From the sequence record PQ249395: 64,000 nucleotides of DNA, one strand, 5' to 3'. The notes beneath the pieces were generated by a model. That model ran no database searches, had not been told where the DNA came from, and was given only the letters and a program-made list of their open reading frames with translations. This DNA comes from Escherichia phage Pu-Krd-SF1. Positions 14,262 through 14,672 of the stretch are shown here, piece by piece. Each line of letters starts with the position of its first letter. The first letter of the stretch is position 1. The translations under genes were made by a program, and so were the position numbers.

Positions 14262-14647
14262 ATGGAACTTATTACAGAATTATTTGACGGCGCTTCGGCG
14301 CCGGTTGTTAACTTAAATCCTAAGCATAAAATACTACAAATTTTTGCTATTCAAGCCGGCGAAGGAAGCGTGCTTCCTGGATTTAGATTTTGTACATACA
14401 CCTCTGGCGGTGATACAGATAAAACGTTAAACCAGGCGACAAAATGATGCATATCGTAATGATAGGTGTTAATGAGAAACTATCATTAGTTAAGCTTAAA
14501 AACTTGGGTGGAAATCCAATTGGTGTCATTAATGCTGTTTTTGATACTGCTCTTCAAACAATGAAACAGTATAAAATCGACGCATGCCTATTACGCGTAC
14601 TAAAAAGTTCAAAATGTAGTTTACAAGTCCCTCGTGTTGTGTTATAG
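14262..14647 (+). pseudogene. Frameshifted partial duplicate of the alt 5' end (two short ORFs 14262..14447 and 14444..14647)
   Basis: ORF1 MELITELFDG...GFRFCTYTSGGDT and ORF2 MMHIV...QYKIDACLLRVLKS parallel Alt residues 1-~125; 1-nt length difference before the ATGATG shifts frame. Confidence 0.6.
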
Positions 14648-14672
14648 TAGTCTTACTGACATAACATGAGGA
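14619..14672 (+). repeat. 54-bp leader repeat, copy B, upstream of ORF 14680..14970
   Basis: Single difference to copy A (TATAGT instead of TACAGT at the -10-like position). Confidence 0.7.

Follow-up and report, generated by a model that had tools for sequence, protein, structure and literature searches.

Our results indicate that nucleotides 14262-14619 of the analysed window, a stretch of 64,000 nt from Escherichia phage Pu-Krd-SF1 (PQ249395), are very probably a pseudogene, a 358-nt stump left of a tandem second alt copy that is referred to here as alt2. An intact alt2 is present between alt and alt.-3 in most Tequatroviruses, about four-fifths of related genomes. The finding is a re-discovery, given that the annotation of T4 and the work of Nolan et al. 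already document the two short ORFs, alt.-1 and alt.-2, that the stump contains. A note in the T4 GenBank record HM137666 describes them as a deletion and a further frame shift in a second alt copy, and Nolan et al. (2006, PMC1524935) listed them among the paralogous duplications of alt. New here are the exact endpoints of the deletion, the 9-bp repeat that bounds it, the survey of alleles and the order of the lesions; the promoter-in-hairpin design predicted for the adjacent leader is the only element with some novelty.

Pu-Krd-SF1 is a Tequatrovirus. The genes near alt follow the order DNA ligase (gene 30), alt.1, alt, two short ORFs and a 96-aa ORF, and genes 54 and 48 lie near the same locus on the strand opposite to alt (Table 1). 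A 901-nt query covering 14100-15000 was 100% identical to Escherichia phages Pu-Krd-SF5, Pu-Krd-SF6 and Pu-Krd-SF7 and 97.9% identical to T4, and the three ORFs 3' of alt are annotated in T4T as alt.-1, alt.-2 and alt.-3. The T4 genes alt.-1 and alt.-2 (HM137666 T4Tp203 and T4Tp202; UniProt P39495 and P39494) share with the ORFs of Pu-Krd-SF1 their position, their boundaries and lengths of 61 and 67 aa, the deletion junction and the frameshift; an earlier sequence-only reading of this DNA had suggested this correspondence, and it holds. Unlike T4 alt.-1, that of Pu-Krd-SF1 and its identical relatives carries the private nonsynonymous changes P25L and E35G (window positions 14335 and 14365). 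Both P25 and E35 are conserved in the other truncated and intact alleles inspected, and P25 is conserved in Alt too. The length of the first alt copy varies among phages, with 683 aa in Pu-Krd-SF1, 682 in T4 and 697 in PP01, RB3 and F26. Over the last 300 nt of alt, Pu-Krd-SF1 and PP01 show 91% identity, below that of the neighbouring genes.

Table 1. Features of the alt region and of the rnlA-alc interval in the Pu-Krd-SF1 window.
Feature	Position	Strand	Remarks
Promoter and leader, second 54-nt copy, between rnlA and alc	1531..1584	+	-35 at 1532-1537; -10 TACAGT at 1555-1560; SD at 1580-1584
alc, 168 aa, served by the rnlA-alc leader copy	1589..2095	+	
alt, first and intact ADP-ribosyltransferase copy, 683 aa	12207..14258	+	Pfam PF03496 at residues 375-615, E 1.3e-33; annotated alt in T4T
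alt.-1 ORF, 61 aa	14262..14447	+	codons 1-53 of the second copy plus 8 frameshifted codons; AAGGA (SD) 7 nt upstream
Frameshift site, A4 run	14421..14424	+	A5 in intact paralogues and in the truncated SG1 and fPS-90 alleles
alt.-2 ORF, 67 aa	14444..14647	+	begins with the two adjacent Met codons inside the second copy; shares ATGA with the alt.-1 stop
Deletion junction, one remaining copy of the 9-bp direct repeat CTAAAAAGT	14600..14608	+	from comparison with intact genes
Preserved 3' end (11 nt) of the second alt copy (TCAAAATGTAG)	14609..14619	+	original stop TAG at 14617-14619
alt.-3 promoter and leader, 54 nt	14619..14672	+	same site annotated as promoter in phage Lutter
alt.-3, 96 aa, DUF5498, served by the 54-nt leader	14680..14970	+	Pfam PF17602, E 1.4e-64; annotated in T4T
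Two-way terminator hairpin at the alt.-3/gene 54 boundary	14975..14996		terminators annotated there in fPS-90 and Lutter

Both short ORFs are related to the N-terminus of Alt. BLASTP aligned the ORF at 14262-14447 with Alt residues 2-63 (55% identity, E 6e-21) and that at 14444-14647 with residues 64-118 (62% identity, E 2e-21), and the remnant shows about 69-71% nucleotide identity to the 5' end of alt itself. The sequence-only reading was thus right that the start of Alt is encoded again in two frames, with about 116 Alt-like residues in 14262-14608. It had let the homology run up to the 54-nt repeat found again upstream of alc, and here a correction is needed, as the similarity ends near that repeat but stops at 14608, at the deletion junction and 11 nt ahead of it. 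alt.-2 ends in 12 residues (SKCSLQVPRVVL) that are not Alt sequence, because they result from out-of-frame read-through into the promoter of alt.-3, and the ORF terminates at a TAG within the -10 hexamer of that promoter. The reconstructed 118-aa stump gave no Pfam match and the PF03496 catalytic domain is absent from it; its Alt N-terminal homology is evident from the BLASTP matches and from 95-97% nucleotide identity to intact alt2.

The origin of these fragments in a duplication of alt, which had been proposed from the letters, is borne out by a full-length tandem paralogue at the same position in relatives. Phages PP01, RB3, T2 and PYPS2T possess a complete second gene of 2,058 nt, encoding 685 aa, between alt and alt.-3, and some records label this full-length copy alt.-2 or alt_2. 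Its product is 41% identical to the Alt of Pu-Krd-SF1 overall and about 70% identical over the first ~235 residues, the stretch in which Alt and Alt2 are most alike. In alignments, intact Alt2 retains the R / S-T-S / E-x-E catalytic motifs, as YR(S/G)Q, VSTS and E-x-E-VILPRG, and PF03496 is found at residues 416-620. The remnant is orthologous to the full-length Alt2 genes of T2, PP01, RB3 and PYPS2T, with the same 5' neighbour, alt, and the same leader and alt.-3 on its 3' side. It matches the first 348 nt of the intact paralogues at 95.1-97.1% identity with exactly one gap, and differs from them in being frameshifted and in having lost codons 117-680, the whole PF03496 domain included. When the reconstructed 118-aa N-terminus was compared by tblastn, about 415 phage records gave a one-piece, in-frame match of about 91%, and these matches fall within genes annotated as Alt-like ADP-ribosyltransferase.

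The homology of the remnant skips from the first 348 nt of the intact gene to its final 20 nt, and the missing segment amounts to 1,699 bp between perfect 9-bp direct repeats of the sequence CTAAAAAGT. In intact genes, one copy of this sequence occupies codons 114-116 and the other, 1,699 bp further downstream, overlaps codons 680-683; RB3, T2 and PYPS2T have all nine bases (9/9) at either site. The lengths agree, as 2058 - 1699 - 1 = 358 nt, exactly what 14262-14619 spans. A loss of 1,699 bp is not divisible by three, so that the tail is read in another frame, as SKCSLQVPRVVL. The second lesion is a -1 slip that reduced an A5 run to A4. The single-nucleotide frame change had been recognised in the sequence-only reading, but it lies 20-23 nt upstream of the ATGATG and not directly before it.

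Deletions between short direct repeats in T4, formed by illegitimate recombination or replication slippage, were classically described for rII. The alt2 deletion resembles these in that both endpoints lie within a perfect 9-bp direct repeat of which one copy is kept. Unlike the rII-type deletions, which were selected in the laboratory, it is natural, fixed and inferred from comparative data.

A survey of alleles drawn from the GenBank phage collection shows how widely the truncated form is distributed. A 71-mer spanning the junction was matched in full in 88 of 467 related phage records; in all 20 that were sampled from the other 379, the match is limited to its right-hand 43 nt, which fall at the 3' terminus of a full-length Alt-like gene. 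Scans of IMG/VR returned two close loci for a junction 20-mer and five for relatives of Alt.-3. Twelve of the 88 truncated alleles were aligned (Pu-Krd-SF1, T4T, F26, Lutter, G8, an IMG/VR contig, SG1, F1, fPS-90, HY03, slur14 and BYEP02), and the junction is identical in every one of them. The slip in the A-run is present in 10 of these 12, the exceptions being SG1 and fPS-90, and codon 6 has changed from GAA to TAA in 8 of the 12. SG1 and fPS-90 retain the unshifted A5 and yet have the codon-6 stop. The F1 allele has a 9-nt deletion, and in HY03 alt.-2 is interrupted by a 7-nt insertion. Of the four ways in which the slip and the codon-6 stop could be combined, three are seen, a pattern that suggests either recombination between alleles or slippage on more than one occasion.

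From these data a sequence of events emerges. The ancestral state is an intact 685-aa Alt-like ADP-ribosyltransferase gene between alt and alt.-3, from which the lineage of T4 and Pu-Krd-SF1 lost 1,699 bp between the CTAAAAAGT repeats, the repeat structure suggesting replication slippage or illegitimate recombination as the route. The -1 slip in the A5 run split the stump into alt.-1 and alt.-2; the deletion probably preceded this slip, since SG1 and fPS-90 have the deletion without it. In other deletion-carrying lineages, a codon-6 stop, a 9-nt deletion or a 7-nt insertion represents later decay. The stump is presumably transcribed as the 3' tail of RNA from the alt region, most likely without a function of its own.

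The sequence-only reading had proposed a recombination in which no more than the start of alt was duplicated and became joined to another leader. The starts of alt and of the remnant do have 31 nt in common at 97% identity, and the sequence that follows the remnant is found upstream of alc as well. Such a de novo partial duplication is nevertheless highly improbable, as the remnant shares about 70% identity with alt against 95-97% with the 5' end of the full-length gene, and the last 11 nt of the second copy are still present together with its stop. The complete 685-aa paralogue exists, and the two ORFs form a single in-frame gene in about four-fifths of related genomes, an outcome that the sequence-only reading had itself named as contrary to its view. 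In PP01 the 54-nt leader lies directly 3' of the intact alt2 stop; as the leader follows the intact gene already, it was not the truncation that brought a foreign leader and the stump together.

Whether the stump is inert can be weighed on several lines of evidence. It shows the traits of a pseudogene, with an intact orthologue at the same locus in relatives, disabling lesions and ORFs that are not conserved among the phages that carry it. The repeated and independent nature of the disabling lesions indicates that the ORFs are not maintained. One or both fragments might still have been kept as working small proteins with the Alt N-terminal module, for example competing with Alt or assisting it in capsid targeting or partner binding. 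Both ORFs are open in Pu-Krd-SF1 and T4, alt.-1 is preceded by a good SD, the ATGA overlap would allow coupled translation of alt.-2, and the module concerned is the part best conserved between Alt and Alt2. A time-course multi-omics study of T4 detected the transcripts of alt.-1 and alt.-2, classed as middle, and gave their proteins as NA, that is, not detected (PMC9697503, Table S2). The lack of a detected protein is weak evidence, because shotgun proteomics often misses small proteins. Rare variants of the truncated alleles comprise 7 nonsynonymous and 10 synonymous changes, compared with a ratio of about 3.6:1 expected under neutrality, in small counts and with recombination with intact alleles likely. 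Neutral drift is consequently not shown by the data; the ratio could be due to recombination with intact alleles of other phages or to the youth of the lesions, and some constraint is compatible with it as well. The remnant, at 95.4% identity to PP01, is no more diverged from that phage than are its neighbours alt.-3, at 96.6%, and gene 54, at 96.5%. Against working fragments stand the codon-6 stop in two-thirds of the 12 truncated alleles aligned, the broken alt.-2 of HY03, the missing Pfam domain and T4 protein, and the full-length gene that most relatives have instead, and we consider this explanation unlikely. A further proposal, that programmed frameshifting or transcriptional slippage at the A-run joins the two frames into a 118-aa Alt N-domain protein, would fit a shift located within a homopolymer run and two ORFs that overlap, but four A residues make a short run, neither a slippery heptamer nor a stimulatory structure was seen, and the joined product would still end in out-of-frame promoter sequence. 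It was rejected on the length of the run and on the unshifted SG1 and fPS-90 alleles, which are broken as well, and its probability is close to nil. A decayed stump is the best-supported reading, and of the three fates put forward in the sequence-only reading, inertness fits the evidence best.

The 54-nt element that follows the stump is the resident early promoter and 5' UTR of alt.-3. It starts at the G of the alt2 stop codon and contains a -35 box TTTACA (14620-14625), a TG-extended -10 box TATAGT (14643-14648) at a spacing of 17 nt, and at its end the SD GAGGA (14668-14672), 7 nt ahead of the alt.-3 start codon. The promoter is of the early sigma-70 type, with agreement at 10 of 12 consensus positions. 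The leader is found under or next to an Alt-like gene and alt.-3 in 488 records. As had been noticed earlier, it is repeated in the rnlA-alc intergenic region, where 1531-1584 is identical to 14619-14672 at 53 of 54 positions; none of 100 shuffles gave two matches.

Each sequence was folded and compared with dinucleotide shuffles. The predicted fold of the 54-nt element is a 14-bp stem with a short upper stem, in which spacer nucleotides 14630-14643 pair with 14658-14671, SD included. Its free energy is -23 kcal/mol for the alt.-3 copy (z about -3 to -5) and -26 to -33 kcal/mol for the alc copy (z about -5.5 to -5.9). Transcription of alt.-3 is expected to start near 14655, judging from the -10 box that ends at 14648, and RNA begun there, which is devoid of the 5' arm, has no significant predicted structure. 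The element may therefore act as a conserved translational gate, in which read-through RNA arriving from upstream (from rnlA or alt) would hide the ribosome-binding site and RNA started at the promoter itself would be translatable; this is a prediction from folding and comparison, about as likely to be true as not.

A comparison with other genera bears on where this design arose. Pairing of the spacer with the SD was predicted upstream of alc in different sequences, namely those of AnYang (Dhakavirus), CGG4-1 (Gelderlandvirus), CF1 (Moonvirus) and two Klebsiella phages, with z from -3.5 to -6.8, and was absent upstream of alc in phiC120, PS2 and Acinetobacter phage Kimel. Upstream of alt.-3, the spacer contains no more than a short hairpin of its own in six records from five other genera and in NHEP10, a phage whose record gives no genus and whose sequence is similar to that of Mosigvirus; SD-spacer pairing was found in none of them. 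RNAalifold, run on a MAFFT alignment of seven leaders, gave nothing useful, the stems being in different registers. Since the design is found in several genera at alc and only in Tequatrovirus at alt.-3, it would seem to be ancestral at the former and, in Tequatrovirus, copied to the latter. This agrees with the sequence-only reading, in which the leader was taken for a copy of that of alc, and the copying appears to predate the alt2 deletion. In other genera, the spacer some 60-30 nt upstream of the alt.-3 start contains a short local inverted repeat with a conserved (A/T)GGA(A/T/C) loop, and a similar one is found upstream of alc in phiC120 and PS2. The stems of these spacer repeats differ (GCAC/GTGC, CCAC/GTGG, ACAC/GTGT), a pattern resembling covariation within the spacer of a sigma-70 promoter.

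Hairpins of a related kind are known from the T4 genes e, soc, 49 and I-TevI, where they hide the ribosome-binding sites in long transcripts and where the internal promoters are late (PMC3014915). As in these genes, the SD of the 54-nt element lies in a helix, predicted for RNA begun upstream at -23 to -28 kcal/mol and z of -5 to -6, whose 5' arm is missing from transcripts of the proximal promoter, so that only such transcripts should be translatable. Unlike them, with their late promoter TATAAATA, the element has an early promoter of the sigma-70 type inside the helix; late promoters delay expression in e, soc, 49 and I-TevI, and the early one would limit expression to early times. In T4, alt.-3 and alc are early both as RNA and as protein (PMC9697503, Table S2). 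The hairpin review (PMC3014915) does not mention alc, and a description of the gate design was not found for alc.

The PeSL cassettes of T4-type phages combine an early promoter with a separate, adjacent terminator stem-loop, often with polyG/polyC (PMC2839356, PMC4122927). The 54-nt element is similar to the PeSLs of Arbiol et al. (2010) and Comeau et al. (2014) in being a repeated and conserved early-promoter element that forms a stem-loop, with a strong sigma-70-like promoter, and its two copies are in direct orientation, a possible substrate for recombination, as in PeSLs. It differs from them in that its sole strong stem spans the -10 box and pairs the spacer with the SD, and in that a polyG/polyC tract is absent. 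Membership of the PeSL class was rejected on these structural grounds. Comeau et al. (2014; PMC4122927) make no mention of alt or alc.

Two further observations were made in the window. A hairpin of the form GGGACC-GAAA-GGTCCC is present at three sites (14975-14996, 30090-30107 and 31450-31465), and the copy 3' of alt.-3 scores as a terminator on both strands. At 27083-28501 there is a 472-aa ORF with Ig-like repeats that contains a tandem duplication, 27347-27634/27635-27922, of 288 nt at 77% identity. This ORF looks like Hoc, in which case the duplication would presumably add one 96-aa repeat relative to the 376-aa Hoc of T4.

The stakes of the stump finding itself are small, although with its endpoints mapped it offers a clean natural case of a deletion between 9-bp repeats that was followed by stepwise decay of a pseudogene. 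A true gate would parallel, with an early promoter, the late-promoter hairpins known from T4 e, soc, 49 and I-TevI; if real at alc, it would explain how alc and alt.-3 stay strictly early despite read-through from upstream. With respect to the family, T4 is the unusual phage, having lost one of two tandem Alt-type ADP-ribosyltransferases that about four-fifths of its close relatives have retained. Because of this loss, studies of the three ADP-ribosyltransferases of T4 (Alt, ModA and ModB) understate the usual T-even repertoire.
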